From positions 320,230,001 through 320,294,000 of the forward strand of contig OZ024743.1 in NCBI GenBank assembly GCA_964016885.1: a stretch of 64,000 nt of DNA, given 5' to 3'. The notes beneath the pieces were generated by a model. The model saw nothing but the letters and a program-made list of their open reading frames with translations. It was not told the DNA's origin and did no database searches. The translations under genes and the position numbers were made by a program. The stretch is from Eledone cirrhosa (Eukaryota). Positions 7,840 through 63,819 of the stretch are shown piece after piece. Each line of letters opens with the position of its first letter. Positions within the stretch are counted from its first letter, which is position 1.

Positions 7840-8460
7840 GCAGAATTTTCCCCTCTACAAATTTAAAGACAACGCTTTCTACACCCAGCGCATTATCAAG
7901 GAATCACATTTTATCGCTAAATCCGAATCCCCTCTAAATGCATCTATTTCAAACGAAATTGCAGCTGGCACACTTTAAAATTAGCACCTTGCACAAATTA
8001 AGGAAGATCTCTTTGAAACATTCACACTGCAGGTCAATTTAAGAATGACAGCATTACAGACAGAAATATCAATATATATATTTTTAGAAACAATTAGTTC
8101 CTCAGTCAACTCTAAGGTCACTCAATCATTTAAGTCAACCCCACGGACAGCTCCCATTACCCTTATTAATTGTGATACTATTACTACTACACCTTCCTGT
8201 CGTCCCCTTCTGATTCATCCACCCCTTCTCCGTCTTCCCCTTTCTTACCATAGCCCTGGTATTACTACCACACCTATCCCATGACCCTCCCTCGTTGAGA
8301 AAGCATATATGCTGAAACCGGTACAATTAAATGCGGAAATCCCTATTTTGTTAATAAATGTTTTGATGTTATTCTGAGACAGAATCCTTTTAGTATTTTC
8401 TACTGTTCATTTTCCTTTATTACTATTTTTTATGTATATCAACTCGTGTGTCACTTCTAT
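7840..8460 (+). mobile_element. Penelope-like element 3' remnant (duplicate ~21895-22520)
   Basis: FPLYKFKD...QRIIKESHFIAKSESPLN resembles a GIY-YIG C-terminus; followed by a hammerhead-like motif at 8295-8323 and (TA)n. Confidence 0.6.
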
Positions 8461-8467
8461 ACATTCC

Positions 8468-8506
<39 letters not shown>

Positions 8507-8627
8507 TGTATATATAGTGTATTTCGTAATACAATGTATGCTTAATTAAAATCATTTTGAAGACCATACGCTATTGCTTTAAAATACTGACTATGTCACT
8601 TATTTAAATTTTCCGCAAACAGGGGAG

Positions 8628-8680
8628 ATAAACAGACAGAGCTCTGTTTCGTACTTTTTGGTACTTATCAAAGTTCACTA
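8628..8680 (-). ncRNA. Minimal type-I hammerhead ribozyme, U3-A8 core (duplicate 22711-22762)
   Basis: Minus strand gtgaact-TTGATAA-GTAC caaaaa GTAC-GAAAC agagctct GTC-tgtttat. Confidence 0.65.
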
Positions 8681-9084
8681 CTCAACTTGTTTGCTGAAAA
8701 CTATGTGCGTTGGATTCTTATAGAATTCCAGTAATAATCAGGAACTGATTATACAGAGCAGTCGCCGGCGCAGCAGAAATTGAAAATTAGAATTGGTGCT
8801 CTGAAATAGCGATATATATATGAATGTATATATAGTGTATTTTGCAATACAATGTATGCTTAATTAAAACATTTTGAAGATCATACGCTATTGTTTTAAA
8901 ATAGTGACAATGTCACTATTTTAAAACAATAACGTATGGTCTTCAAAATGCTTTTAATTAAGCATACATTTTCTAGAAATACTCGAAATATTAACTTTCA
9001 CTATAATGTGTAATTTTGACACAACACAGCTATTGTTAACTAATGATTAGATTATTTAATATCTATTTAAATGTTGATTTGAAG

Positions 9085-19723: not shown

Positions 19724-22520
19724 GTATGTACGAAATTATGTATCGATATTTTGAGCACTTACTTGAAAATCTATAAATTTTCCCTTCATATCTTTGCATA
19801 ACCCGAAATTAGGATGTACAGCCGTATGAAGGATATGGGGTACTAGAAGAGAACTTCTCATAATCCTTGAAGTATTAACATGGGTTTTAATTATGGTTAA
19901 TCAATTGTAGTCTTCGTTGAACTCTTAACGTATTCAATTAATCAATGAATAAATGATGATGATATGCAAACTAAGTGGTCTTCCGATCCTGTAATTAGTT
20001 AAATGCCATACCTTTAATATTTTCTCGACTGCACAAACGATGTTGATGGCCAGGCACCTTCAGATTCATTACAGCTTTACTTCTAGAAACAAGTGTTCCT
20101 GAAAATTGACTAAGTGTATTTTGTATTATATTTTGGCGTGTGAAATATTTCTCATACAACGTTACGAAAATATAATTTTTTAAATGCATATACACGCGCA
20201 CACATACACACACACACACACACTCACACACACACACACACACACAAACACACACATATATATACTAATAGTAATGAGATTCACAGAAAGATGCACTAGT
20301 ATATGTGTGTACGGCTCCGGCGTTGACCAGTTTTGCTCAATGACCGAAAGAGTTAAAATAATCAATTAATCAGAGCTATTTATCAAACTAAAAATGCGAG
20401 TAAATAATAGAGAAAAATATACCTATTTTTCTTCACAGTCCAGACTGCAGTTTCGCCAAATTGCTTTGCAGTAATCATTCACTTCTATAGTGCATCTATG
20501 CAGCAAAGCAATTTGGCGAAACTGCAGTCAGGATTTTGAAGAAAAAATAGGCATATTTTTGTCTAATATTTCCTCGCATTTTTAGTTTGATCAGACCATG
20601 ACGCAACACAATTGGCGGCGTCATCAGATGTAAAGAACATAAAAGATGTAAAAGATTTAGTTCAGTAATCCCTACAGGGTTACGGCATATTATAAACACA
20701 TAATCGATACTGAGGCTGCCCGGCCAGCGATGCAATTCGGTATATTTTTCTCTATTATTTACTCGTATTTTTAATTTGATAAATAGCTCTGATTAATTAA
20801 TTATTCTAATTATGCCTTACTAGACTTCTTTTCTAGTATTTGGCTCTCAAATATGAACACCTTCTTCAATCAGTCATCCATAAATATACATGGTATGAAA
20901 GGAATCGGAGATAGAAATAAAAAATGTTGTTATTGACTCTGATCTTTTCGATTCTCTGCTGGTTGTTCATATTAAGAGAGAGGCTGAACTGTTAATTGAT
21001 CACCATCTAGTTATTTGTAACTTGAGACTAACTAATGTCAAGAGAGCCCACAGATCTGGCAGCTTTAAGTCGTCTACAGAATTAAGTGGAAAATGTTGAC
21101 GGATAAGAAAATAAGGAACAGTTATGCGGATACTATTGCATAAAAATTCAGAGAACTGAGTAAAGCGATGTTGTTGAAACAGAGTAGTGACTGTTTAGCT
21201 CGGTAGTTTCTAATTCAGCTGTTAAATGTTGCGGCTGAAATGTTGCGGCATATCATCAACACATTGTTGTTTCATATGTCTTAGTCTTTGTGTTTTAAAT
21301 ATATTTGAGCTGTTTAGAGTTAAAATCCTTGTAACAGGTACTAAGACTATTACATGCAATAATATCAATACTATTATTATTAAAATGTATTATAAGGTAG
21401 GTATTGTTATATGGAGATCATCGTAGTCTTATATTTTAGTCTTATGCTCTTTCCCCAATGGCTTGCCATGGAGGAAACAGGAAAATAGTTAACTGAACTC
21501 CTTGCCCAAGTAAAACAGACGTGAACATTTCAGAATCAAGGGAAAAATTACACACGTTCGTCTAGCCTATGATAATAGCCCCCTCTACAGAAACCCGCAA
21601 ATAATCAATACAGGGACACTGTGCATGTTCACGACAACATTTAATTTTCTTTATTGTTTTGTCAATATTTTGTTTTACGTCTCATTAGGATAATTTACAT
21701 GGTTCTTCTAATCTTGGCTCAATGAACGTTTCAATATAGCTAAGCTGCAAACGAATTCTAGATTCGTTTAATTCGATGAATATGAGATATTGTATTTCTT
21801 ATCGGGGTAACCTGTGTGATAGGAAGACATGAAGGTAAGGGGCTGGTGTAGTACAGTAGCAATAGTGTTTCTTTTAATAAGGTTTTTGACATAGCAGAAT
21901 TTTCCCCTCTACAAATTTAAAGACAACGCTTTCTCCACCCAGCGCATTATCAAGGAATCACATTTTATCGCTAAATCCGAATCCCCTCTAAATGCATCTA
22001 TTTCAAACGAAATTGCAGCTGGCACACTTTAAAATTAGCACCTTGCACAAATTAAGGAAGATCTCTTTGAAACATTCACACTGCAGGTCAATTTAAGAAT
22101 GACAGCATTACAGACAGAAATATCAATATATATATTTTTAGAAACAATTAGTTCCTCAGTCAACTCTAAGGTCACTCAATCATTTAAGTCAACCCCACGG
22201 ACAGCTCCCATTACCCTTATTAATTGTGATACTATTACTACTACACCTTCCTGTCGTCCCCTTCTGATTCATCCACCCCTTCTCCGTCTTCCCTTCCTTA
22301 CCATAGCCCTGGTATTACTACCACACCTATCCCATGACCCTCCCTCGTTGAGAAAGCATATATGCTGAAAGCGGTACAATTAAATGCGGAAATCCCTATT
22401 TTGTTAATAAATGTTTTGATGTTATTCTGAGACAGAATCCTTTTAGTATTTTCTACTGTTCATTTTCCTTTATTACTATTTTTTATGTATATCAACTCGT
22501 GTGTCACTTCTATACATTCC

Positions 22521-22589
<69 letters not shown>

Positions 22590-23167
22590 TGTATATATAG
22601 TGTATTTCGTAATACAATGTATGCTTAATTAAAATCATTTTGAAGACCATACGCTATTGCTTTAAAATACTGACTATGTCACTTATTTAAATTTTCCGCA
22701 AACAGGGGAGATAAACAGACAGAGCTCTGTTTCGTACTTTTTGGTACTTATCAAAGCTCACTACTCAACTTGTTTGCTGAAAACTATGTGTGTTGGATTC
22801 TTATAGAATTCCAGTAATAATCAGGAACTGATTATACAGAGCAGTCGCCGGCCCAGCAGAAATTGAAAATTAGAATTGGTGCTCTGAAATAGCGATATAT
22901 ATATGAATGTATATATAGTGTATTTTGCAATACAATGTATGCTTAATTAAAACATTTTGAAGATCATACGCTATTGTTTTAAAATAGTGACAATGTCACT
23001 ATTTTAAAACAATAACGTATGGTCTTCAAAATGCTTTTAATTAAGCATACATTTTCTAGAAATACTCGAAATATTAACTTTCACTATAATGTGTAATTTT
23101 GACACAACACAGCTATTGTTAACTAATGATTAGATTATTTAATATCTATTTAAATGTTGATTTGAAG

Positions 23168-36883: not shown

Positions 36884-36928
36884 ATGTCCAATATTTCGGG
36901 ACCTAAAAGTCCCTTCATCAGGGATTAA
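36884..36928 (-). ncRNA. Minimal hammerhead-like motif of the PLE fragment
   Basis: Minus strand aatcc-CTGATGA-a-GGGAC ttttag GTCCC-GAAAT ATT-gga. Confidence 0.55.
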
Positions 36929-38153: not shown

Positions 38154-38886
38154 ATAAGTAAGATGTATGGTAGGTCGTATGTGAATCGCGATGATCACGT
38201 CTGACTTACCAAATATGTGACGGTAGCTAGTTAAGCTCTATGCGGATACGCAGAGCAGAAATATTAGTTAAAAAGAACAAAGGAACTATTATGACATTAT
38301 AACAAGTTTATTGCCGACAGCCGTTTCGTCCGACCCCATGGTGGGACTTATCAAGGCATATAACATGTGATTGCAAGATCATTGTTTACATCAACGTATC
38401 ACTCAAGGCTAGCAGTTTGAAATTGTTGTATACATCAGCAACTCCGCTTTAAGGGGGGCTCTTTTATATTAGTTGTCGGGGTCAGGGATTGAAGTTTAAA
38501 AAGTAGACAAAAATATATAATTCACGCATCAACATTAAACCAAAGACCTGGGGTCCCGTTGAAGCACCTCAGAAAATCCCTCAATGAGTGCATAAAGCTT
38601 ACAGGCTCCAATACACCTATTAGTCTAGAAGAAAATTAAGAGGCTAATAAAATAAGAAAATAAAAATATAAAGTTTCCCTAAAAAATATATAGAGTTCCT
38701 ATGAAATTTCTTCTAGAGAAAAAAAATTTTTTCCGAAAGAAAAAAACCTTCTTCCCCCGAGATCACGTTTACAAAATTAAGAAAACTGAATTGAAAACTA
38801 GGTTGAAAGAAACTAATCAATTAGAGGTTAATTCAGAGAGCCTTCCATAAATCTCTCAGAAAAGGCCCCTTTACTATTTCCAATAG
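38154..38886 (-). repeat. 3' pseudo-LTR of the PLE (~733 bp)
   Basis: Near-identical to 43385-44118. Confidence 0.92.
38308..38363 (-). ncRNA. Hammerhead ribozyme (U3-A8 core) in the 3' pseudo-LTR
   Basis: Minus strand tatgcc-TTGATAA-GTCC caccatggggtc GGAC-GAAAC ggct GTC-ggcaata. Confidence 0.8.
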
Positions 38887-40717
38887 GAACTTCTTCCGAG
38901 AGACCCTTCGAAGAATTAAAATTTTAGAGAGCCTTTAAGGATAAATATAAAAACGAATTGAGGAAAATTATACATTAAAAGTTAAAAATTAAAAATTACG
39001 GTATTTGGGATATCCGAGGAATTTTCAAAGGGCTGCTTCAACAGATACAACCTAGGCATAATAGGTACAATAATCTAAGCAATTTAACTAATTTAATTAG
39101 GGAGCAATTCAAGGAGTTTATCAAGTTGGGCAAGATTAAAGAAAGTGGTAACTAAGAAAATACATAAGCAAAAAGACAATAATCATAAAATGTATCTTTA
39201 AGAAGGTATAAGGTAGCTTCAGTGATCTAACCCTGTATTATCACAAAAAAACATTCTAAAATTATTGATACAGGATTAAAAATTATTAGAAAATCATTAC
39301 AAAATTACCACAAAATCATTACAAAATTATCAAATTATCATAAAATTATCGCAAAATTATTACAAAATTATCATAAAATTATTACAAAAATATAACAGGA
39401 TGAACAGTACTGGTGACCGTGTGGGCGCGATATCCATTCTGCCTATGCAGTCCCCTGCACAGCTCCAGGCACGATATCCATTAGGCGTAAGCAGTCATCT
39501 GCATAGCTCCAGGCGCAGCTGGTCTTGTTTAAACGTTCATAGATCACCTGGGGTTCACTATTATCTGCGTGGACTCTCTGGGAGATGTACCTGTGGATCT
39601 AATAGCCAGTGGTTGCCGGATGTGGTCCGTTCGATCTTTTAGTTTCAGGGGTTGAACGCTTTCGCGATAGACGAGCCTGCTGGTTCTAAGTCCAAGGTTT
39701 CGCCACGCATGATGGATTGGTCCACATGCTATATTGTTAAAAAACCAGTGTGGATTTGACTGGGGTGGTATATTACGAACTCCAAGTCCACACGCGACTG
39801 GTCAAAAGCGAAGGGCTGTCCTCTCTTTGTTTGCTGTATGGGTCGTTCTCAGCTTAGATGGTGGTCGTGTTATCCATATTCCGTCAGCCCTGTATATTCA
39901 AGACAGATCAGGGTATGTATTTGCGGGTATGGTCCTGCGTCTACGTTATCCAGAGGGTCTCGCTTGTGGTATTTTCAAGTTCGCATGTCATCTCCCGGTT
40001 AAGACTGCGCATGCTTCGGTGAATCTCAAGCATGGAATCTTAGGGTATCATATTACACGGGGTGACCAGCAGAAAATATACATTCTATGCTATCGCGCAC
40101 GCGCTGGCCTGCGGCTACGACCGTGTCCAGTCTCGGCAGACAGCAGGTAGACCAGCTATACACACCCCCGATCAGGGGGAACAACCCCTAACTTATCGAG
40201 TGGTCAGACTTCAAGGGAGTCAACTCTCCAAGCCCATTATGTCGACCGTGGTGAAATACAAAAAAAATTCCTATTAGTAAAGAACTAATCACTGATAATA
40301 AAGAACCAGCTCAAAAGAATGGGGGGGGGCATCTATTTGGGCGGGGGTTTACTAAGGGAGGGGGTGGGGTGAGTGGCTATAGGCAGGGAGCGGCCGCCAT
40401 ATTGGGTGTTTTGTTACTGTTTCCCTAGGCAGTTCTCGAGTTTATTGACATACATCTCCGACGGCACCCTCTCAGATTAGTCAACGTGGTTCCAGGCCCT
40501 CACGATGTCCTGCATCGCAGGCATCAGCTGCCCCCAGGTTGCCCAGCAACAGTGTTGCCACCAATCCCAGGTTGGCAATTGGGACACAGGGTCGTCTGTT
40601 CCTCACCAGAGTCCCCATCGCCAATCGGGGAGCCGAGGCATCCATGCGGCCGGGGTTACCACAGAGCACCCTGTACGCCAGCGGGGCCGCCACGTGCAGG
40701 ACTGGGTGGTGTCATGG

Positions 40718-43332
40718 CTATGTGTCCGGTCTGAAGAAAAATAAAGAGCTAAGTATGGTATGGGGGCAGGACGAGAAGATTTCTGATCTCCTGTTGAGCA
40801 AGTTGAGCCCTGAGAATACTATGGCATGAGATTCAGATAGGCACAGGCTACAACACCTGCTCAACGAGCTATATGGAGGAGCCTTAGTAAGGCATCTCCA
40901 GCTGAGTGTGTAGGGGGTTTTTGTTTGTTTTAAGCTATGTATATGCCCCGCTAACGACGTGGTATTTTTAAGCTTCTCATATCGGAAGCTATGCTGGTGG
41001 GCGTTGAACCTCGTCTTGAACTCATTAGTGGTTGATCCTACGTACGTCTTAGTATACGTGCCTGTGGTTACGTTACAAGCATATACCACGTTCCTGATAA
41101 GGCAGTGTCCAGCTAGTGGGCATTTGTCCTTCCTTCTGCAATTACACTCTTTAGTAGGGACATGCCCCTCAATCAGGGGTGCATGTCCCTCCAAGCGGCC
41201 GCGAGGCTGCCTAGTGGGACCGGTTCTATTGCCTAATATCCACCTGGGTCTTTCACTCAGTGGGTTGGTCCCGTGTTGTCGTGTGTGCTGGCGTGGTTCA
41301 CTATTTCGGATGGCCTTAAGTCCCTCTTTGATCTTACTTTTATTGGTCTTAGCTAGGTGTGAGGCCAGATTAGGGGTTGTAGAGTACGATAGCTTGACAG
41401 TATTCTTATTGATGACACTACCGTACCTACTACCCGGGGGGAAGTTCTTATCTATTAAAGAGAAAAAAGATTTGGGGAGGTCTGTAGTAACATTAGAGTT
41501 GAAGGGCGGGTTAAAGAAGGTACTATCACGTCTTCTATTCCTTCCACTGCGTTTCCTATCCCCTATGCAGTTTGCCCTCTCTTCGTCTATATTATTACTG
41601 GTTCCACCAGGTGTGGTTGCTGTACACCCAGTGGTATGTGCGTTGGTCTCAAGTCTCCTAGGCCTCTGTCCCCCGTTTTCACTGTTGGACTTGCTCGGGG
41701 CGGCATAAGGCTTACCAGGCGTGCGGGCCCTGTCCGTGTCTGCGTTGCGAGTGTTGCTGTTCTTATCTAACTTCCTATTGTCCCTATTCGTCTTTCTAGC
41801 TCTCCCTCCAACTCCCATGGACATATTTAGCGTGATTACAGTGCTGGGCTGGGGTGGCAGGGTGGTGCCGCCTGTCTTAACATAATGGAGTTTATCCTTG
41901 TGCCCTGACCCAGCTAGCGCCTTATTGTAATATTCCGCGTTCGCTTCAAATGCGGTCACGCTGCTAGATAGTCCGCTAATCCTACTAGATACTCCCTTAA
42001 CTATTGCTTTGAGGACTGAGCCTGGGTGGTTGGAGCCGGCATTGACGTACGTCAGCCTTTCGTTAGGTTTATGGTACGGTGCATATTCTAACTTATCTAG
42101 GTCTAGTGTGGCGTCTAAAAAGTTGACTACCTTACTATTTCTATCCATAGTTATTGATAGGTTAAAATTCTTGAAGAATTTATAAAGGTCCTTTCTAGTT
42201 CTTTCTAGGTTGTGCCGTTTAAAGTCCACAGTAAGCAATGCGTCGTCACGGTATAGCCCACCTCTGAGGTGTGGGAGCTGCTCGTTGAGCTCCTTGAGCA
42301 GGTACAATCCGACGAGCTCTGTCACCTGCGCTGAGTCGCTAGACCCCATAGTGATGTCGAAATTGTTACGAGTGTTCTTGCGCGTCCACAATTCATCCTC
42401 AAATGTGATAATTGTTTTACGAGCGGCAAGGACTATGTCAATCTGGGATCTAGCGAGTCCGCCCGTCCGCATTGCCAACATGAGCGCCTTATTTAGTAGT
42501 ATGGGGGATATAGACGTATAGTAGGAGTCTATATCGAACTGGATGAAGCGTAGTGACTTGTGGTTGCTAATGCTTGAGAACCACTTTATCACTTCTGCAG
42601 TGTTTCCCCATAGGTCCAGGCTAATCCTGTCTTTAACTTTCGGTATGACTTCATCTAGTATTTTTTTACTTATAATCCCTATGTCAGATTTAGAGGGGCT
42701 AATGAGACTGACAGAGGGGCTACTTGCAAAGTCCTCCTTATGGTCTTTCAGTGTGAACCTTGGTTGTCGGGGGGTATAAGGTTGTGTGCATTTCTCTAAT
42801 CCTAGCTTCGTTACTATCACTTTAGCCTCCCTGTTAATCTCATCTAGGTTGGCTACAGTGGTTTTTTATAGTTTTTATGTAGCTCGTTGTATATGAAGCC
42901 GCGGTATTCCTCATAGCTCAGGTTGTACATATTCCTAGTCTTATCCGAGGGTACTAGTATACACTTTCTGTCCTTAAAAAATTTAACTAGTGATTCTAAC
43001 TTTGTTTGGAAGCCGCTACGCTTACAGTTTTTTCTTTTATATCTAATAGACCGGACGAGAGACAAAAGGTCACTCTCAAATTTATCGAGCAGAGGGTTAT
43101 GGGGCGGGCTCCTAAATGTCCTAAAACCATACTTATTATTCGATGGACTCTCTAGTGGGGCGTTACGGCGCCTATCGAAGTGAAAAGTGCGCCATCTTAT
43201 TCTCCTTACAAACGAGTTAACGCTGGTTATAAGCTGCTTTTCATAAGTACCCCTTGGTGGTATGGGTATATTCTTAAGTGATAACGGAAGATGGTCCTTT
43301 GTCAGCATACTGTCAGTGTATTGAAAAGCCAC
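40718..43332 (-). CDS. PLE polyprotein (reverse transcriptase + GIY-YIG endonuclease), one frameshift near 42861-42866
   Basis: SLKNIPIP, FIQFDIDSYY, ITMGS, GLYRDD, FLDATLDL, CNCRRKDKCPLAGHC, VVY..YVGST, CSLCLSE; adding one A to the A6 run joins the 159-aa and 700-aa ORFs. Confidence 0.9.
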
Positions 43333-43384
43333 CCCAGGGCGGTGTGTTTTTCAGTGAAGGTTAAGCTCTACCGGAGGGAGCTAA

Positions 43385-44118
43385 ATAAGTAAGATGTATG
43401 GTTGGTCGTATGTGAATCGCGATGATCACGTCTGACTTACCAAATATGTGACGGTAGCTAGTTAAGCTCTATGCGTATACGCAGAGCAGAAATATTAGTG
43501 AAAAAGAACAAAGGAACTATTATGACATTATAACAAGTTTATTGCCGACAGCCGTTTCGTCCGACCCCATGGTGGGACTTATCAAGGCATATAACATGTG
43601 ATTGCAAGATCATTGTTTACATCAACGTATCACTCAAGGCTAGCAGTTTGAAATTGCTGTATACATCAGCAACTCCGCTTTAAGGGGGGCTCTTTTATAT
43701 TAGTTGTCGGGGTCAGGGATTGAAGTTTAAAAATTAGACAAAAATATATAATTCACGCATCAACATTAAACCAAAAGACTTGGGGTCCCGTAGAAGCACC
43801 TCAGAAAATCCCTCAATGAGTGCATAAAGCTTACAGGCTCCAATACACCTATTAGTCTAGAAGAAAATTAAGAGGCTAATAAAATAAGAAAATAAAAATA
43901 TAAAGTTTCCCTAAAAAATATATAGAGTTCCTATGAAATTTCTTCCAGAGAAAAAAAATTTTTTCCGAAAGAAAAAAACCTTCTTCCCCCGAGATCACGT
44001 TTACAAAATTCAGAAAACTGAATTTAAAACTAGGTTGAAAGAAACTAATCAATTAGAGGTTAATTCAGAGAGCCTTCCATAAATCTCTCAGAAAAGGCCC
44101 CTTTACTATTTCCAATAG
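43385..44118 (-). repeat. 5' pseudo-LTR of the PLE
   Basis: Near-identical to 38154-38886. Confidence 0.92.
43539..43594 (-). ncRNA. Hammerhead ribozyme (U3-A8 core) in the 5' pseudo-LTR
   Basis: Identical to 38308-38363. Confidence 0.8.
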
Positions 44119-44369
44119 TAAACTCATCGCTAGAACACCCGTTAGAACAGCCAAATGCTGTCAATGACAGTGATGGTCAAAAATGCTTCAGAGGATAAAG
44201 ACCAGTGGCCAGACACGTCAACAGGGTGATAATCCACAAGGTGTGGTGTGACAGGTAGATGAAATATAGAAAATTTGAAAGGGGAGGACGACAAGGAGGT
44301 GTGTCTTCGCGTATAGAAATGACTGGAAAAAGGAAATAAGGAAAGGCGATGTACAAGATAAGTTCATAA

Positions 44370-44400
<31 letters not shown>

Positions 44401-44849
44401 CACATCTTTACCCTCATCAGCTCTCCAATCAGCAACATGGTTTTGCGCGATTTAATTGAGAGTACCATTATAAAATATTGGATTGTGTCACAGAAAAATA
44501 AATCTTTCTGCTGGTATGATGTTTGTTATAAAACAAACACCGGAGATATTAAGACGAAAGAAGACAGAAAAGAAAAGAAGAGGATAGTGGAGCTCAAACC
44601 GTGGTGTCTGTCCTAAATAGAAAGATAATCATAGCTATGATAATGTTAAATGAATAAACATCATTGTCTCTGATCGAGTCAAAGTGTGAGTATATTTGAA
44701 TTCATATAAAATTAGAAAACTCATTGCTAGTACAGCCGTTAAAACAACCAAATGCTGTCAATGAGACTGATGGGCAAACTTGTGTATGTATGTATGTATA
44801 AATGCATATACATATAAATATCTAAACAAAAAAAGTCTAAAGGCTGCCT

Positions 44850-45055
44850 TAAGCTCATTTGGCCGGTGCTTATCCCGGTTTCCTGGCGTGAAGCAGGGCT
44901 AAATCCTCAGCTATTGTTAGTACTCATTTTCAGCTGAGTATACTGGAGCAACGTGAAATGTAGTGTTTTGCGCAAGAACACAACACGCAACCCAGAAATC
45001 GAACCCACGATAATATGATCGTAAGTCCAACACCCTTACCACTAGGCCACGTGCC
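44850..45055 (-). mobile_element. Second tRNA-derived SINE family (fragments also at 46302-46467 and 51720-51850)
   Basis: Minus-strand A box TGGCCTAGTGG and B box GGTTCGATTTC; shared ggagcaacgtgaaat core. Confidence 0.7.
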
Positions 45056-45380
45056 CAATTATACATGTGTGTGTTTGTGTACATTGGACACCCGTCGCTT
45101 TCTACAATTAGTGTACCAATTGAATTATCTGATCACTTTTATCTATTGGAAAGAGCAAACATTTATTTGACCTGCATAAATCGTAAAAAAGACACTCACA
45201 AATAACACTCGCCTCGCTTAAGAAAGGAATTCGGGATATGACGAGATTTTTTTCACCATAAGTTACTCTAACATGAATAACATGAAATCTAACAATTTTG
45301 ATATTATTATTATGATTAGTATATGTTGAGGAAAAGCTTGACACCACTCAGAAAATTTCACATGTTCTATTTTCAATCAG

Positions 45381-45552
45381 GCAAAAGAGACTATGCTATT
45401 AAATGACTGCTCGAAAGCCGTCACCTGTAAAGAAGATAGAAAATATGTGGAGACGACACCATGCCCCATAGGATTTGAATGTTTGGTTGAATACGGTAAA
45501 CGTGTGTGTAAATGCCCACCTGGATTTGCACCTTTGAAAGGTGTATGCAAAG
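45381..45552 (+). CDS. TILa/EGF-like Cys-rich exon
   Basis: aatcag|GCAAAA...TGCAAAG|gtatgt; DCSKAVTC..PCPIGFEC..CKCPPGF..GVC; phase 0-1. Confidence 0.87.
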
Positions 45553-45857
45553 GTATGTACAGGGATATTAATTTTGTTTTACTAAACTTCATATTTGATT
45601 AATGGTTTGAAGGTTGTTATATGTATATATGTATACACACAATATGACTGAAGATGAAGATTAACAAGTGAGATTCATTCCTTAATTTCTACGTCGGTTT
45701 CAATACGGTTACAATGTTACATGCATAAGTAAAAAAACGAGAAATAATTATCAACTTCATTTCGTCTGGAAAATGGGAGAAAGCAGAAATTTTGCCAAGT
45801 TCAAATAGTAACAAGAATAGACTTCATATCAAACACTGAGCCTAAAGCAAGCAATTG

Positions 45858-45913
<56 letters not shown>

Positions 45914-46024
45914 AAAAAAAGATGAAATCGAAAATGCAACTGGAGTCTTATTTAAAAACATATATAGATATTTATTTGGTTTCTCACAGATGTGAGAAAA
46001 ACCACAGACCCTCCATCTCAACTC

Positions 46025-46065
46025 TACTTTTGAAAAGCAGAAGAACTGCGAAACCGGTAAAGGAA
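46025..46065 (+). ncRNA. Minimal hammerhead ribozyme, U3-A8 core, inside a small inverted-repeat element (45909-46136)
   Basis: ctt-TTGAAAA-GCAG aagaa CTGC-GAAAC cg GTA-aag. Confidence 0.65.
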
Positions 46066-46237
46066 CTAAATAAATATCTATATTTTTTAAAAATAAGACT
46101 CCAGTTGCATTTTCGATTTCATCTTTTTTTCTTTATACTTTCACTCGTGTAGGACACCTCGGTTATTTTTCATTCTGTAAAAAAAACAAAAAATCTCACT
46201 TTCTAATATATATATATATATATATACATTTCTATAT

Positions 46238-52095: not shown

Positions 52096-52164
52096 CATAA
52101 GTACTTATTCATAGGTCAGCATTCATATGTGATTATACTTAAATATCTGCACCTTTTATTGCAG

Positions 52165-52398
52165 TCATGCACATGTTTACTCGTGTAACCGTGGCTTACA
52201 TAGAAGGAACTGTTCTGGAAGAGACAAACGACACACAAACGGAAATCTGTGCTCACAGATGTCTCAAAAATAAGAAATGTAAATCATTTAATTACGATGA
52301 ACTTGTAAAACGTTGTCAACTCTTTGGTTTCAATGCTGCTACAACTGTCACTTTGACACCCAGTGAATGTCCATACAGGGATTACTATCAACTAATTG
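52165..52398 (+). CDS. PAN/Apple domain exon 1
   Basis: ttgcag|TCATG...CTAATTG|gtaagt; EICAHRCLKNKKCKSFNY....CQL...DYY; phase 1-1. Confidence 0.9.
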
Positions 52399-52732
52399 GT
52401 AAGTATGAATGTCATTAAAGACAATGTGATCCAAACCTTAGGAAGAACATTTTAAATTCAATATTCAGTAAATGGAATTATAAAGTGTAAAGTAAGTACG
52501 TAGAATGTCATCGACTGAACAATTTTGATTCCATTTCCTTGTTATTGCTCGTAAGAGAAATCAAAGTGTGTTGATATGTTTATGAAATTATAACTGTAGC
52601 TTTCAGCATATTGTTTACCTTTGTCTTAGCTTACTTCCATTTTCAGTTCGGTATTTCAAACTTGCTTGAACTGGCTTTCTTAAAATAGTTTTAACAATAC
52701 GCCCCCCCCCCACTAATACACACACATTGTAA

Positions 52733-54770: not shown

Positions 54771-55799
54771 TACAAGTTAATATGAATTAATATGAATTAA
54801 TATAAATATGATAAACACTAATACAATCATATAAGTGTTTGTATTGTAAATGACCAAGTTAGCTAGATTGAGAAATACTAATTAGATTAATACAGTTTGC
54901 CTGTCTCGATTTAAAATAATAAATCAATAAAAACAAACCCATATTGGCAATAGCCGTGGTACTTGGACAAATTTAAATTTCAAAATCCAAACCTGTTCCG
55001 TAGATAAGTTTAAACTTCAAAACCCAAATAAGTTTCGATAATTGAAAAAGTGAAAAATTCCATCTTCTGCTCTCATCAGCAAGTACCCAGAAAATTGGTA
55101 TGTTTCACCTCAAAATATTTAAAAGGACTGATCGACGCACATGGTATTTCAGCGTCTAGCTACCCCATACTCGTGCTGCTAGAAATAACAGCCGTTTTTA
55201 TGGGACTAAAATTAGCTCAACAAAAGGAGCCGTTATACTATATATATAGAGAGTTATAAACTGAAACCGTCTTTTACAATTAAATAGATCAAAGAAAGAA
55301 GTATTTCTGAGCCGTGAAATACAAGGCTGTAATTTCTAGCAGCACGAGTATGGGGTAGCTAGACGCTGAAATACCATGTGCGTCGATCAGAACTTTTAAA
55401 TATTTTGAGGTGAAACATACCAATTTACTGGGTACTTGCTGATGAGGGCAGAAGATGGAATTTTTCACTTTTTCAATTATCGAAACTTATTTGGGTTTTG
55501 AAGTTTAAACTTATCTACGGAACAGGTTTGGATTTTGAAATTTAAATTTGTCCAAGTACCACGGCTATTGCCAATATGGGTTTGTTTTTATTGATTTATT
55601 ATTTTAAATAGAGACAGGCAAACTGTATTAATCTAATTAGTATTTTTCAATCTAGCTAACTTGGTCATTTACAATACAAACACTTATATGATTGTATTAG
55701 TGTTTATCATATATATTAATTTATATTAACTTGTATTTCACGGCTCAGAAATACTTCTTTCTTTGAGCTATTTAATTGTAAAGGACTGTTTGAGTTTAT

Positions 55800-57324: not shown

Positions 57325-59855
57325 TCCTTGAATCTCAGTCATTGATGTTGGTTAACTGGAAAGTCCGTTGGATTGAATATCAAGCCACTACCTGCAGCCT
57401 CAGCGTTCCAAAAAGCGTGAAGGGGCCGATTTTCTTTAACCATCCCTGGAAACCTTTGGAGATAGTCCCCAGTGCGCCTATGACAATCGGGATCACTTTG
57501 ACTTCATGGCAGTTCCAAATCCTTTTCACCTCCCACTTTAGGTCCTGGTATCGGTTAATTTTCTCCCTCTCCTTCTCTTGCACTCTCGTGTCGAACGGGC
57601 AGGCCACATCCACAATCAGGCACGATCTTTTTTCTTTGTCCACAACCACCAGGTCAGGTCTATTGTGTTCCAGTTTTTTGTCCGTCTGTATCCTAAAATC
57701 CCACAGCACCTTCACCTGACTGTTCTCCATCACCGCCTCTGGCCTATGCTCATACCATTTCTCAGAATGTGGTAGATTGTTTACTTTGCACAGGTGCCAG
57801 TGGATCACCCTGCCCATCACATCGTGTCTCCAGCCCTTATAGTGGGTCTGGGCTAGGTGTTTACACTCGGACACAATGTGAGCCACAGTCTCCTCTCTCT
57901 CTCCACAGATCCTGCACAGTGGGCTAGCCTCCTCCTTGTAGATATGGTGCTTCAACCACTTCGTTTTGAGGGCCTGCTCCTGCGCAGCCATTAGTATTCC
58001 TTCTGTAGCCTTTTTGAGGTCTCCTCTTCTCAACCAGTTCCATGTCTGTGGATCTCTAAATTCAGTTTTCTCAAAGAAGGTACTATGAAGGGATTTTCCC
58101 TTAAGGCTGCTCTTCCTCCTTGATGTTATTTCCTCCTTGGATATCCCCTGGCCTACTGTCCCCTCCTTCAGTACAGCTCTGAGCATTGGCTCCTTACTAT
58201 AGGTCATGTATTTGTATAGGTTGTTTTTCTCCATCTGAACACAGTCCTCTATGCTGATAAGACCTCTTCCACCCTCAGATCTCCTTAGGTAGAGTCTATC
58301 GACATCACTCCTCTTGTGGAACATGTTGTAGATAGTCAATAGCTTCCTAGTCTTCCTATCCATTTCTTTTTGTTCCATCTCAGAATTCCCGCACTGTACC
58401 TAATAATAGACACAGCTCGGGAATTTACTGCGCTTATGGCATTTCTGCTGTTCAGATGTGACTTCAATACGCTCCTTACTCTCCGAATGTATTCAGTTCT
58501 TAACAATTCCTTCATTTTTTTGTTCTTTATGCCATCAGCCTCCAGAACACCCAAATACTTGTATCCTTCCTCAGAGTCAATTTCCTTTATCATCTCACCT
58601 GTTGGTATCTGGATCCCGTTACTTCTGCTCAACCTACCCCTCCTCATCACAATGACTCCACATTTACCAATACCAAACTGCATACATATATCACTGCTGA
58701 AAATACGGACAGTGTCAACAAGCACATCCAACTCCTTCTCACTTTTCCCGAAGAGCTTAAGATCGTCCATGAAGAGGAGGTGATTGATGGTAAGCTCTCC
58801 CCTTCCCAACTTGTATCCTGCTCTCACTTTTCGCAGCATAATGGTCAAGGGCATCAGGGCAAGGACAAACAACAGAGGGGACAGGCTATCTCCCTGGAAG
58901 ATACCTCTCTTGATCTTCACGCTTCCCAAGGATACTCCAGTTGATGTCAACTCTGTCTCCCAGGACCCCATACTCCTGCCCAGCAACTGTCTGATGTTAT
59001 CTGCCACCCTGAAGATCTCCAGGCTTTTGGTGATCCAGGAATGAGGCACCATGTCAAATGCCTTTCTGTAGTCTATCCATCCCATGGCAAGATCAGTGTG
59101 TCTCCTCCTGCAATTCCCCATTACCATCTTATCAATAAGCAACTGGTCCTTTGTACCACGTGACTTCTTTCGGCATCCTTTCTGTTCGTCCGGCAACAAG
59201 TTGTTTGTGTGGAGGTGATGGTAGATTTCCTCAGACACAATGCTCGTCAACAGTTTCCACATTACGGGCAGACATGTGATAGGTCTATAGTTGGTAACAT
59301 CATTACCCTTGATTCGGTCTTTCATTATCAGAACTGTGGTACCTTTTGTCAACCACTCTGGCACCTCACCCGACACCAAGCAGTCATTGAACATGGCCGT
59401 CAGCTTCGGGTGGAGGGATGTTAAATGTTTAATCCAATACCCCTGCACACCATCTGGGCCTGGTGATTTCCAGTTGGTTAGTTTTTTGGCTTGCCCCTTA
59501 AGAGTTTCAACTGTGATACTCAAATCAGTCTGTTGCTGTGCCTGCTCACCGATCTCCCTCTGTACTGTCTCAATCCACCCTGCCTGGGCATTGTGTCTAA
59601 CATCCTGCTCCCATATTCCTCTCCAGAATGTTTTAGCTTGTTCCGCCCCAGGGATCAAGTCGTTGCCTCTTTCTTTCCCCTCAAGCTGTCCAAACAGCAT
59701 CTTCTGGTTGTTGTCGAACATGCGGTTCTGTTTATACTGACTGACTCTGTTCTCGTATCGCCTGATTTTGGTACTCTTTGCTACAATGCGTTGCTTCAAT
59801 TCCTCTATGATAATATTTAGCTTTTTACTCCTAGTTTTGTATTTTATTTCCAGTC
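57325..59855 (-). mobile_element. R4/Dong-type non-LTR retrotransposon (RT + CCHC + REL endonuclease), 5'-truncated, frameshifted
   Basis: WKSPGPDG, NYRPITCL, GIFQGDSLSPLLF, HLLFMDD, CRIC..H..C, RHD, NRPD..D; (TAA)n on both sides. Confidence 0.92.
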
Positions 59856-59922
<67 letters not shown>

Positions 59923-59923
<1 letters not shown>

Positions 59924-60342
59924 CTTGAATCTCAGTCATTGATGTTAGTTAACTGGAAAGTCCGTTGAAATGAATATCAAGCCACTACCTGCAGCCTCAG
60001 ATATTCAGGACGTATCGGAGGGTTCTTGCTGTTCCCAGCAAGCATGCCTTTTGAAGCGTTCCAAAAAGCGTGAAGGGGCCGATTTTCTTTAACCATCCCT
60101 GGAAACTTTTGGAGATAGTCCCCAGTGCGCCTATGACAATCGGGATCACTTTGACTTCATGGCAGTTCCAAATCCTTTTTACCTCCCACTTCAAGTCCTG
60201 GTATCGGTTAATTTTCTCCCTCTCCTTCTCTTGCACTCTCGTGTCGAATGGACAGGCCACATCCACAATCAGACACGATATTTTTTCTTTGTCCACAACC
60301 ACCAGGTCAGGTCTATTGTGTTCCAGTTTCTTGTCCGTCTGT
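59923..60342 (-). mobile_element. R4/Dong-type element, short 3' fragment of the same family
   Basis: REL C-terminus and 3' UTR near-identical to the 57325 copy; (TAA)n flanks. Confidence 0.9.
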
Positions 60343-60391: not shown

Positions 60392-62315
60392 GGAGTGTCA
60401 GTCGTTGATGTTATTTAACTGAAAAGTTTGTTCAAATGAATATCACGCCGCTACCTGCAGCCTCATATATTCAGGACGTACCGGAGGGTTCTTGCTGTTC
60501 CCAGCAAGCATGCCTTTTGAAGTGTTCCAAAAAAGTGGGCTGGACTAATGTCCCTTAACCATCCTTGGAAACTCCTTGAGATAATACCTAGTGCTCCTAT
60601 GACAATTGGACGAGCTTGGTCTCACGACAGTCCCAAAACCTTTTAAACCCCCACTTTAAATGGTGTCGGTTAATTTTCTCCTTCTCCTTTTCTTGCACTC
60701 TTTTGTGAAAGGGGCAGGCTACATCTACAATTAGATACGATCTTTTGTCCTTGTCAAAAACCACCATGTCAGGCTTATTGTGTTCTAATTTCTTGTCTGT
60801 CTGTAACCTGAAATCCCATGGGCACCTTCACCTGATCGTTTTCTATGAAAGACCCTGGCTTATGCTCACACCACTTCTCAGAATGTGGTAAATTATTTAG
60901 TTGGCATAGATGCCAGTGAATCACCTTTCCTATTATATCATGCCTCTAGCCTTTATAGTGAGTCTGGGCTAGGTGTTTACACTCGGATACGATGTGAGCC
61001 ACAGTCTCCCCCCTCTCTCTCTCCACAGATCCTACACAGTGAACTAGCCTCCTCCTTGTCAATATGGTGTTTCACCAACTTCGTTGAGGGTTGCTCATAT
61101 GCAGCCATTAGTATTCTTTCTGGAGCTTTTTTAAGGTCTCCTCTTTTTAGCCAGCTCCATGTCTGTGGATCTCTGAATTCCGTTTTCTTAAAGAAGGTGC
61201 TATGAAGGCATTTTTCATGAAGGCTACTTTTCCTTTTTGTTATCTGCTCCTTCAACACCCCCTGGTCTATTGTCTTCTTCAGTACAACTTTGAGCATTGA
61301 CTCCCTATTCTCAGACACATATTTGTGCAGACTGTTTTTCTCCATCTGAACACAGTCCTCTATGCTGATAAGACCTCTTCCATCAAATCTCTTTAAGTAG
61401 AGTCTATCAACATCACTCCTCTTTTAGAATATGCTGTAGGTGGTCATTAGTTTCCTAGTCTTTCTATCCATTTCGTTTTGTTCAGTAACATTCCATTTCA
61501 GAATTCCCGCACTGTACCTAATAATTGTTTCTACTTTTGGCACAGGGCCAGCAATTATTCCAGTGCATTACTGGTACTTTATTCTATCGACCCCGTAAGG
61601 ATGAAAGGCAAAGTCAACCTCGGCGGGATTTGAACTCAGATCATAAAGGGACATAACTATGCTAGAAAGCATGGCGTCCGACCCTCTACCGTTACTGCCA
61701 ATCTACCGCCCTATACCTAATAATAGACACAGCTCGGGAATGTACTGCACTTATGACATTCCTACTATTTAGATGTGATTTTAGTATGTTCCTTACTCTC
61801 CTTATGTATTCAGATCTTACCAAATCCTTCATTTTATTGTATTTGATGTCATCTGTCTCCAGAACACCCGAATATTTGTATCTCTCTTCAGTGTCGATTT
61901 CCTTTACTATATCACCTGTTGGCACCTGAATTCCGTTGATTCTGTTCAATGTACCCCTCTTCATCACTAGGACTCCACACTTATTAATACTAAATTCCAT
62001 ACATATGTCATTGCTGAAAATATGGACAGTGTTAACAAGTACATCCAACTCCTTCTCGCTTTTCCCAAAGAGTTTTAGATCGTCCATGAAGAGGAGGGTG
62101 TTGATTGTAAGCTCTCATCTTCCCAGCTTGTATCCTGCTTTCACTTTTCTCAATATGAGGGACAAGGGTATGAGGGTAAGGACAAACAACAAAGGGGACA
62201 AACTATCTCCTTGTAAGATACCTATCTTGATCTTCACGCCTCCCAAGGATTCTCGACCTGATGTTAGCTCGGTTTCCCAGGATTTAATACTTTTACTTAA
62301 TAGCTGTCTGATGTC
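60392..62315 (-). mobile_element. R4/Dong-type element, older subfamily, decayed and SINE-interrupted
   Basis: LFMDDLKLFGKSEKELD, WLKRGDLKK; frameshifts; (TAA)n flanks. Confidence 0.88.
61526..61713 (-). mobile_element. Full tRNA-derived SINE with 11-bp TSD
   Basis: TSD tacctaataat at 61515-61525 and 61714-61724; A and B boxes on the minus strand. Confidence 0.88.
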
Positions 62316-62679
62316 TTATTATTATTATTATTATTGGTCTGAGTTCAAATCCCGCCGAGGTTCACTTTGCCTTTCTTCCTTACGGGGTCGATAAAATAAA
62401 GTACCAGTAATGTACTGGGTAATTGCTGGCCTTGTGCCAAAAGTAGAAACAATTATTATTATTATTATTTTACCAATAGAGAGAGTCGGTTTCTAACATA
62501 GACACAAGACTCTCTCATTGGAATTTACACAACATCAACTAGGTAGATTATGTATGCATGCCTGCATGCATGTGTAGATATGGATGTTATTGTATGTGTG
62601 TATGTGTATGTTTTGAGTTGTATGTGTGCATGTGTATATGCTTTGTATCTGTACATGTGTATATGCAGTTATTAGATGC

Positions 62680-63645
62680 AAAGTTTTTGGTATGTTTTAC
62701 ATATTTTTTACTGTTCCATTAATGGATTGTACTTGTAACTTCTTAACTAGTTGTGTTCTTTCTGTTCCTGTGAAGCCTAGCTTCTCAAGATTGGTATTGA
62801 GTCATACATCTGAAGGTGTAATCAGGGTGGAGTATCTGCAGATTTCTCATCAGTTCTGCATAAATATTCTCCTTTTCGCTAATCTTTGATATTATATTGG
62901 CATTTGCTGGGCAGCTAATTTCCACTACTGTGCTTGCTTTCTTTTCTCTGTCCCATATCATAATATCTGGTCTGTTATGTCTGCATTTTATTGGGGTTTT
63001 TACTGGAACATTCCACCAGTACTCTTTCATATTATGTATATGGATGTCTTCCACATTGCTGTAGCTTTTACTGTGTTTATTATCGGGGCTATCTTTTCTA
63101 TGGATTGTATTGTACAGTCTTTTGTCCACTACATCATGCCTCATAGGTAGATAGTACCACTATGGCATCTTTGGACAGCTGTTGATGACATGGGTGACAT
63201 CTTCGTTGTTAATTCTAGGTGTTTTGCCTGCATCCCTATCACTTTTGTGAATCAGGTATTTTTGTCTTAATTTCCTGTTCTTGGATTGCAAAAGCGTATC
63301 CTTCAAAGTGGGAGCTAATATAGCGATTGTTCGTCCAAGATAGACTACTTTCTTTATCTATATTACTCTCACTCTGGAGCTTCCTGGTAACATATCCATG
63401 CATGAGTTTTTGCTGATAAGCATGCAGTTTTTCATCCCTGGATTCACTGCGATACTGCTGAGCGACTTCCCTGGGTGTGAGTTTTTGATTATCACACAGG
63501 GAATATCTCTCGAGGAGTTCCTTCCCAACTCTCATGATATTATCTGTTTCATGCAGATTGACTTGCTCGAGAGACGTGAAGGTGTGTGGCTTAGTGGATA
63601 GAGTGTTGCATTCGTGAGGTTGCGCAAGATATTCTGTTACCAATA
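62680..63645 (-). mobile_element. 3' fragment of a different REL-type (R4-like) non-LTR family
   Basis: EGYAFAIQEQEI, MRHDVV, HNRPDIMIWD, VEISCP, EKENIY. Confidence 0.8.
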
Positions 63646-63819
63646 GATAACTAAACTAATTTTAAATGTTACTCAATGACTCATTTTACAAAATTTAGTA
63701 AATCAATTATACAGTCATATATATATATCTACTGTTTCCCTTTATATACCTCTAATACCCTAAGTATTGAGTACTTTGGTGCGTTATGGTTCACCTGGTT
63801 CCTTACCACATTTCTTCCG

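Follow-up and report, generated by a model that had tools for sequence, protein, structure and literature searches.

Penelope-type elements of the Eledone cirrhosa genome and their U3-A8 hammerhead motifs

Introduction

The closest described relatives of the motifs reported here, which lie in a 64,000-nucleotide stretch of the Eledone cirrhosa genome (G000:C4:320230001-320294000, hereafter the window), are the minimal hammerhead ribozymes of Penelope-like elements (PLEs). In the model proposed for them, unit RNA is released and then reverse transcribed by the PLE protein (Cervera and De la Pena, 2014, PMC4209133). A descriptor in which core positions 3 and 8 are U and A (U3-A8) gave about 1,300 matches in the PLEs of S. 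mansoni, next to about 2,000 canonical ones, and Fig S3 of the same work contains the PLE cores UUGAUAA and UUGAAAA, one of them with a 3-bp helix I. Natural covariation from C3-G8 to U3-A8, stated to be active in vitro, is also on record (Perreault, 2011, PMC3088659). PLE insertions are typified by inverted or partially tandem structures at (TA)n, and it has been suggested that the hammerheads of PLEs may merely parasitise these elements (Craig, 2021, PMC8557442).

An earlier note on this DNA, made from the letters alone, had taken U3-A8 to be an overlooked variant. That view has to be given up in the light of the S. mansoni descriptor: the variant is already published, and this genome adds one more example. 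In this work we describe the motifs, the families to which they belong and their copy numbers, the PLE insertion anatomy of their carriers and the covariation of positions 3 and 8. We consider it rather probable that these motifs, borne near the 3' ends of Penelope-type elements, cut the transcript of the element that carries them, the genomic copies being inert passengers.

Materials and Methods

The window belongs to a 3.0-Gb genome of about 35% GC. Hammerheads were sought with a descriptor scan in which positions 3 and 8 were left unconstrained, and 100 local dinucleotide shuffles served as control. The genome-wide share of core types was estimated in a sample of 139 evenly spaced 10-kb stretches (1.39 Mb). 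Copy numbers of families are exact-pattern counts over the 3.0-Gb genome; the count patterns for family D exclude G at position 3. The tree of family D was built from 50 units with the two trait columns dropped, after exclusion of nine copies (18 loci) that are tandem duplicates of the window locus.

U3-A8 hammerheads in the window

The scan of the window returned six U3-A8 matches (8295 and 46030 on the plus strand; 43585, 38354, 8671 and 22754 on the minus strand), against a mean of 0.01 and a maximum of 1 in the shuffles, and a single C3-G8 match (36921, minus strand). Together with a direct reading of the sequence, this bears out the five U3-A8 motifs that the earlier note had placed here. 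They fall into four families, A to D, whose window copies all have a type I hammerhead core with a Watson-Crick pair between positions 3 and 8. Helix II is of 4 bp in all the motifs (predicted pairing about 0.6-0.9), and its sequence varies among the families yet remains paired. Helix III is a palindrome with monomer pairing near 0 and a predicted self-duplex of -9.7 (A), -8.3 (B and C) and -20.1 (D) kcal/mol. Helix I varies, with 4 bp in A, weak pairing in B and defects in the window copies of D (a U-U mismatch) and C (1 bp). In the Rfam scan of the window no hammerhead motif reached the gathering score, the sole match being motif D at 8671/22754 (Hammerhead_HH9, 19.9 bits vs a gathering score of 52).

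The motifs of A are located in pseudo-long terminal repeats (pLTRs), and the elements carrying B, C and D sit at (TA)n in inverted or partly tandem form. This supports the view that these are type I hammerhead motifs of Penelope-type elements. The description of the hammerheads as unrelated holds for their sequence only, since all the elements that bear them share the PLE insertion anatomy.

Family A, a Penelope-like element with two hammerheads

38165 to 44115, minus strand: family A Penelope-like element with Hydra-clade motifs and two pLTRs in partial tandem (open reading frames (ORFs), motifs, flanks)
43390 to 44115, minus strand: upstream pLTR, identical to the downstream pLTR in 706 of 716 aligned columns
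43543 to 43589, minus strand: hammerhead A, upstream copy, U3 at 43585, C17 at 43547, 4-bp helix I (descriptor scan, folding)
42853 to 43350, minus strand: PLE ORF, N-terminal part with RWR and DKT motifs (ORF list)
40718 to 42865, minus strand: PLE ORF, reverse transcriptase (RT) and C-terminal GIY-YIG-type endonuclease part, 715 aa (ORF list, motifs)
38165 to 38880, minus strand: downstream pLTR (sequence reading, pLTR alignment)
38312 to 38358, minus strand: hammerhead A, downstream copy, U3 at 38354, C17 at 38316 (descriptor scan)

Family A has the composition of a PLE, i.e., an RT with a C-terminal GIY-YIG-type endonuclease between pLTR direct repeats; the domain labels rest on motifs, as a Pfam search of these ORFs gave no family at E 0.01. 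The reading frame is broken near 42,855-42,865, a point across which the copy at locus L295 is open, and the ORF has many tblastn relatives in the genome sample. The motifs RWR, DKT and a CxCX5C linker (CNCRRKDKC), together with a (TA)n tract at the 3' end of the element, are those of the Hydra clade, to which we provisionally assign family A by comparison with the described clade.

The two hammerheads of this element have the core TTGATAA, helix I TGCC/GGCA, helix II GTCC/GGAC, a GUC site and, as helix III, the palindrome ACGGCTGT, which is predicted to form only as a self-duplex; helices I and II have a predicted pairing of 0.65-0.76. They lie on the same strand 5,231 nt apart, the arrangement that a dimeric hammerhead requires. 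The core-to-helix-III pattern has 249 exact copies genome-wide, and among the 100 matches listed of these, 99 are U3-A8.

Family D, a retrozyme-like unit with two core types

8490 to 8925, minus strand: retrozyme-like element of family D, comprising about 1.4 units of ~318 nt (self-comparison, descriptor scan)
22718 to 22754, minus strand: duplicate of hammerhead D in a 14-kb tandem duplication (descriptor scan)

The family D element is accompanied by an inverted piece (8895-9005) and contains its hammerhead core at 8635-8671, with U3 at 8671 (core TTGATAA, helix II GTAC/GTAC, palindrome ACAGAGCTCTGT, GUC site). The U-U mismatch of the window copy affects the first pair of helix I, which is U-A in typical copies; judged by sequence, the latter have a helix I of 7 bp including a G-U. 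The unit is a non-coding self-repeat of ~318 nt with one type I hammerhead per unit, as is defining for non-LTR retrozymes, and same-strand matches are found about 318-320 nt apart. A C3-G8 tandem array with a period of 310 nt in the same genome is 67% alike to it; tandem 310-nt units of a non-LTR retrozyme, every one carrying a canonical type I hammerhead with C3-G8, were seen at loci L166:280-3550, L228:8630-9700 and L224.

This family is split into a C3-G8 and a U3-A8 subfamily, and provides the clearest case of covariation between the two positions. There are 891 copies with A8, with U3 in 98 of the 100 among the matches listed, and 100 copies with G8, of which 89 have C3, 10 U3 and one A3. 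All 10 U3-G8 copies carry the 6-nt loop and the U7 of the U3-A8 subfamily. In the tree, the C3-G8 copies, 18 in number, make up a separate branch (SH-aLRT 100), whilst the two U3-G8 copies included fall among U3-A8 copies. With the trait columns included, FastTree recovered the U3-A8 copies as monophyletic (0.90); with these columns dropped, the root falls inside U3-A8, with weak support. The proposal that U3-A8 varies as a pair is supported by these data, the mismatches being only scattered.

Families B, E and C

45907 to 46137, plus strand: family B short element between (TA)n tracts (sequence reading, self-comparison)
46027 to 46062, plus strand: hammerhead B, U3 at 46030, A17 at 46059, 3-bp helix I (descriptor scan, folding)
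8288 to 8439, plus strand: family C element remnant, hammerhead core 8295-8323, U3 at 8295 (descriptor scan, folding)
22348 to 22376, plus strand: second copy of hammerhead C, with a disrupted helix III palindrome (descriptor scan)

Family B has 11,820 exact copies genome-wide, distributed about evenly between the strands (5,967 and 5,853, counted irrespective of genes). In the window it consists of an inverted 3' piece (45907-45984) and a sense piece (45980-46137), the latter carrying the core TTGAAAA, helix II GCAG/CTGC, the palindrome ACCGGT (a dimer-type helix III) and a GUA site. Helix I has 3 bp in the window copy (pairing probability 0.01) and 4 bp in a subfamily (0.16). Position 3 is not U in 101 of the 11,820 copies, and A8 is retained in 100 of the 100 listed among those; we do not count this mismatch rate as evidence of selection because it fits neutral decay. 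The longest copies extend about 0.5-0.9 kb upstream, and no PLE ORF was found in that sequence.

Family E, absent from the window, is the sister family of B, to which it is 75% alike in a stretch of about 125 nt, and has 10,863 exact copies genome-wide (for example L136:9314, L254 and L019), about 45% of the counted U3-A8 copies. U3-A8 is present in 100 of the 100 copies listed, and 97 of these 100 have a further core change, C13 in place of A13 (GCAA for GAAA). At A13 the family thus departs from the type I hammerhead core. A literature search for A13C in hammerheads returned nothing relevant, which does not show that the change is unpublished. With a looser pattern covering B and E, all 53 G8 copies found genome-wide have U3, so that neither family has a C3-G8 sister under this pattern and their mismatches are scattered single mutants.

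Family C (core TTGAGAA, helix II AGCA/TGCT, palindrome ACCGGT, GUA site) has 220 exact-pattern copies; of the 100 listed, 95 are U3-A8, four C3-A8 and one U3-G8. Its window copy has a helix I of only 1 bp, and a possible distal pairing of helix I is largely lost there.

PLE ORF fragments found near copies of B, C or D are not contiguous with them. A PLE belonging to another clade adjoins a B copy at locus L291:238-2410; it has a DKSG motif, a cysteine-rich linker, a GIY-YIG-type endonuclease and an inverted RT part. An endonuclease next to B is also present in L267.

Genome-wide share of core types

In the sample we found 49 C3-G8, 15 U3-A8, one U3-G8 and one C3-A8 matches, the shuffle means being 0.5, 2.4, 0.4 and 0.9, respectively. 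The other combinations at positions 3 and 8 amounted to 12, vs 19.1 in the shuffles. Eight of the U3-A8 matches have A13 and seven another base at this position (family E), and 17 of the 49 C3-G8 matches lie in tandem arrays within three stretches. All nine sample clusters with at least two members have a paired majority core (9/9).

Extrapolated to the genome, there would be about 17,000 U3-A8 motifs with A13 (7,000-34,000, Poisson limits that ignore clustering), or about 32,000 with E included, and 106,000 C3-G8 motifs (Poisson as well, clustering ignored). The exact-pattern counts of the five families A to E give a total of about 24,000 U3-A8-type copies, and reversed-pattern controls for the same families gave 0 matches genome-wide. 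The large U3-A8 population that the earlier note had expected does exist, as a large minority of the hammerhead motifs of this genome. The check proposed with it, whether mismatched cores are as frequent as paired ones, yielded two mismatched vs 64 paired in the sample; mismatched cores occur as scattered single copies only, and no amplified mismatched family was found. Descriptors restricted to CUGANGA would miss roughly 14-23% of the paired-core sample matches (8/57 or 15/64), which provides a measured correction for the hammerhead-like motifs that such searches lose in this genome.

As C3-G8 is about three times commoner than U3-A8 in the sample, the window, with six U3-A8 motifs and one C3-G8 motif, is not representative of the genome. 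The latter motif had been overlooked in the earlier note:

36890 to 36921, minus strand: canonical C3-G8 hammerhead motif in which helix II is preceded by an additional A (descriptor scan)

The sample also contains a C3-G8 family with an 8-bp helix I and an ATATRTAT palindrome, with about 16 matches in 1.39 Mb (loci L165, L203, L222, L196, L199, L214, L189, L142, L193 and others), which is probably the commonest dispersed hammerhead in the genome. Single U3-A8 matches outside families A to E were seen at L226 (minus strand, 662), with a 5-bp helix II and an ACCGGT palindrome, and at L251 (plus strand, 3146).

Proposed role of the hammerheads and alternative explanations

A way in which such motifs could serve their carriers is as follows. 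A read-through transcript would contain two copies from the same strand, separated by 5.2 kb in A and by ~318 nt in the short arrays of D; their palindromes would pair as a shared helix III and the paired hammerheads would cleave after N17. Cleavage would release unit-length RNA, which may circularise and then be copied by the PLE reverse transcriptase. Selection would act on a few source elements only, for which reason founders would keep a paired 3-8 position (C-G or U-A) while copies gather single mutations. Genomic copies such as those of the window would then most likely be inert passengers that decay after insertion. We judge A and D, the latter in its typical copies, likely to be active as source elements, B marginal as a ribozyme, and C and E probably weak or vestigial, with doubtful activity; C and D are represented in the window by damaged copies.

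Several observations weigh against a role of cleavage. Helix I of B, C and E has 1-4 bp with a predicted pairing of 0.16 or less, and proximal helix I of C has only 0-2 bp in the copies seen. The fixed C13 of E and the poor proximal helix I of most of these C copies suggest that an intact ribozyme may be dispensable for large-scale amplification. The U3-A8 copy of D at L114 is predicted to fold best, as a monomer, into an alternative hairpin incompatible with helix I. In the absence of a C3-G8 sister of B and E, the covariation within a lineage comes down to a single event, that of family D. The genome has about 35% GC, and C3U and G8A are both transitions towards A+T. The 5' ends of B copies show no accumulation at the cleavage site (4/103 at 0/+1, in a motif-biased sample); they concentrate at -73 to -69, the inversion junction, again in a sample that favours motif-bearing copies. 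No contiguous RT ORF that could mark an autonomous PLE partner was found in five long B loci, and no autonomous partner of C, D or E at the loci examined. Among published motifs there is one PLE hammerhead with U3-G8, in Saccoglossus 1, and a minimal hammerhead without activity as a monomer and with low activity as a dimer (Cervera and De la Pena, 2014, PMC4209133).

A possible, if less probable, explanation is that the U3-A8 motifs, above all those of B, C and E, are dead passengers drifted towards A+T, with cleavage irrelevant to their spread. The C13 of E, the weak helix I of B, C and E and the AT-ward direction of both core changes all fit this explanation, as does the fact that Naiads reach very high copy numbers without canonical hammerheads (Craig, 2021, PMC8557442). 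Neutral decay, however, should traverse a stage with a single mismatch, yet no family amplified in that state was found; pairing in helix II and in the helix III palindrome is maintained in spite of their differing sequences, and A resides in a young PLE with near-identical pLTRs. We favour cleavage of the element's own transcript. It appears improbable to us that E in particular, amplified to more than 10,000 copies with two alterations of its core (U3-A8 and C13), is active as a hammerhead.

It had also been proposed that the motif at 46030, being sense to the host pre-mRNA, could cut an intron and thereby affect the gene. The host gene can be recognised by the following exon:

45432 to 45553, plus strand: EGF-like exon of the host gene, with a GT donor at its end (sequence reading, predicted gene model)

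Other plus-strand host exons encode VWA, VWD and TIL-like domains, and further cysteine-rich frames are found on this strand at 52143-52418 and from 56937. Judging from this arrangement, the motifs at 46030 and 8295 are probably sense-intronic, and the core, helix II and GUA site of the former are intact. Cutting of the intron is nonetheless very unlikely, because the motif at 46030 stands alone, depends on a dimer partner and has a helix I of only 3 bp: in the monomer, helix III cannot form (probability 0.0) and helix I barely does, the window holds no second same-strand B copy and the inverted piece has no core. This copy is moreover one of 11,820, with strands about even over the genome. 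Along the same lines, 8295 has no close same-strand C partner (the only other copy is 14 kb away, with a broken palindrome), and neither motif is predicted to fold as a monomer hammerhead.

Finally, that the motifs are chance matches, which the AT-rich genome and the sub-threshold Rfam scores might suggest, can be dismissed in view of the shuffle and family data, the empty reversed-pattern controls and the position of motifs in pLTRs.

Other features of the region

A 14-kb tandem duplication within the window repeats hammerhead D at 22754 and hammerhead C at 22348. Units of ~14 kb with VWA and EGF-like exons (window 1-28800) are tandemly repeated over G000:C4:319.98-320.92 Mb, where the 8295 region is present in nine copies and the 46030 region in five; these repeats sit within a cluster of VWA/VWD/TIL/EGF multidomain genes, which occur in both orientations. 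Two stretches of the minus strand (57380-59931 and 60977-63655) contain non-LTR retrotransposon ORFs with an RVT_1 match, in several fragments, and their C-terminal region resembles a restriction-like endonuclease. A long inverted repeat at 55133-55385 (a hairpin of about 250 nt) is probably a non-autonomous element; an assignment to MIR7533 was rejected, the Rfam match being far below threshold.

Comparison with known systems

A literature search on hammerheads of cephalopods or octopus, with incomplete coverage of the key papers, returned no paper on these families. The parts most worth bench testing are the subfamily pair of D and the A13C family E. The C3-G8 and U3-A8 sisters of D, on nearly the same scaffold, are a natural test pair for the role of PLE hammerheads, and B and E, with A13 or C13 and similar copy numbers, are matched natural constructs for the same purpose; such constructs bear on whether hammerhead cleavage matters to Penelope-type mobility at all. 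If E were active, the U3-A8 background would accommodate another base at a position regarded as invariant, and the core consensus would need widening; if it is dead, about 11,000 copies have spread without a working ribozyme.

Family A shares with the Hydra clade of PLEs with a C-terminal endonuclease an RWK-like motif (RWR), DKT, the CxCX5C linker, the C-terminal position of the endonuclease, insertion at (TA)n and a hammerhead in the pLTR. It differs in having 5.2 kb per unit, compared with elements 'generally <3 kb', and a U3-A8 hammerhead where the available text gives canonical ones (Craig, 2021, PMC8557442). Family D resembles the non-LTR retrozymes in its non-coding unit of ~318 nt, its occurrence as monomers to short tandems and its type I hammerhead with a long helix I (Cervera and De la Pena, 2020, PMC7229834; Li et al., bioRxiv 10.64898/2026.07.22.740005). 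Unlike those described in the accessible parts of these two works, it has a U3-A8 core and mostly dispersed copies. The covariation between C3-G8 and U3-A8 is the same as that described by Perreault (2011, PMC3088659), in whose accessible text U3-A8 is rare, whereas here it characterises whole amplified families. The nearest match for the motifs as a group is found in the minimal PLE hammerheads, with their pLTR location, 3-5 bp helix I, palindromic dimer-type helix III, mostly solo truncated copies and U3-A8 cores UUGAUAA/UUGAAAA (Cervera and De la Pena, 2014, PMC4209133). Compared with what the accessible text describes, the present case concerns a different host, about 24,000 exact-pattern copies and palindromes of 6-12 nt, with a carrier, A, that has Hydra-clade motifs and a sister family, E, that adds A13C.

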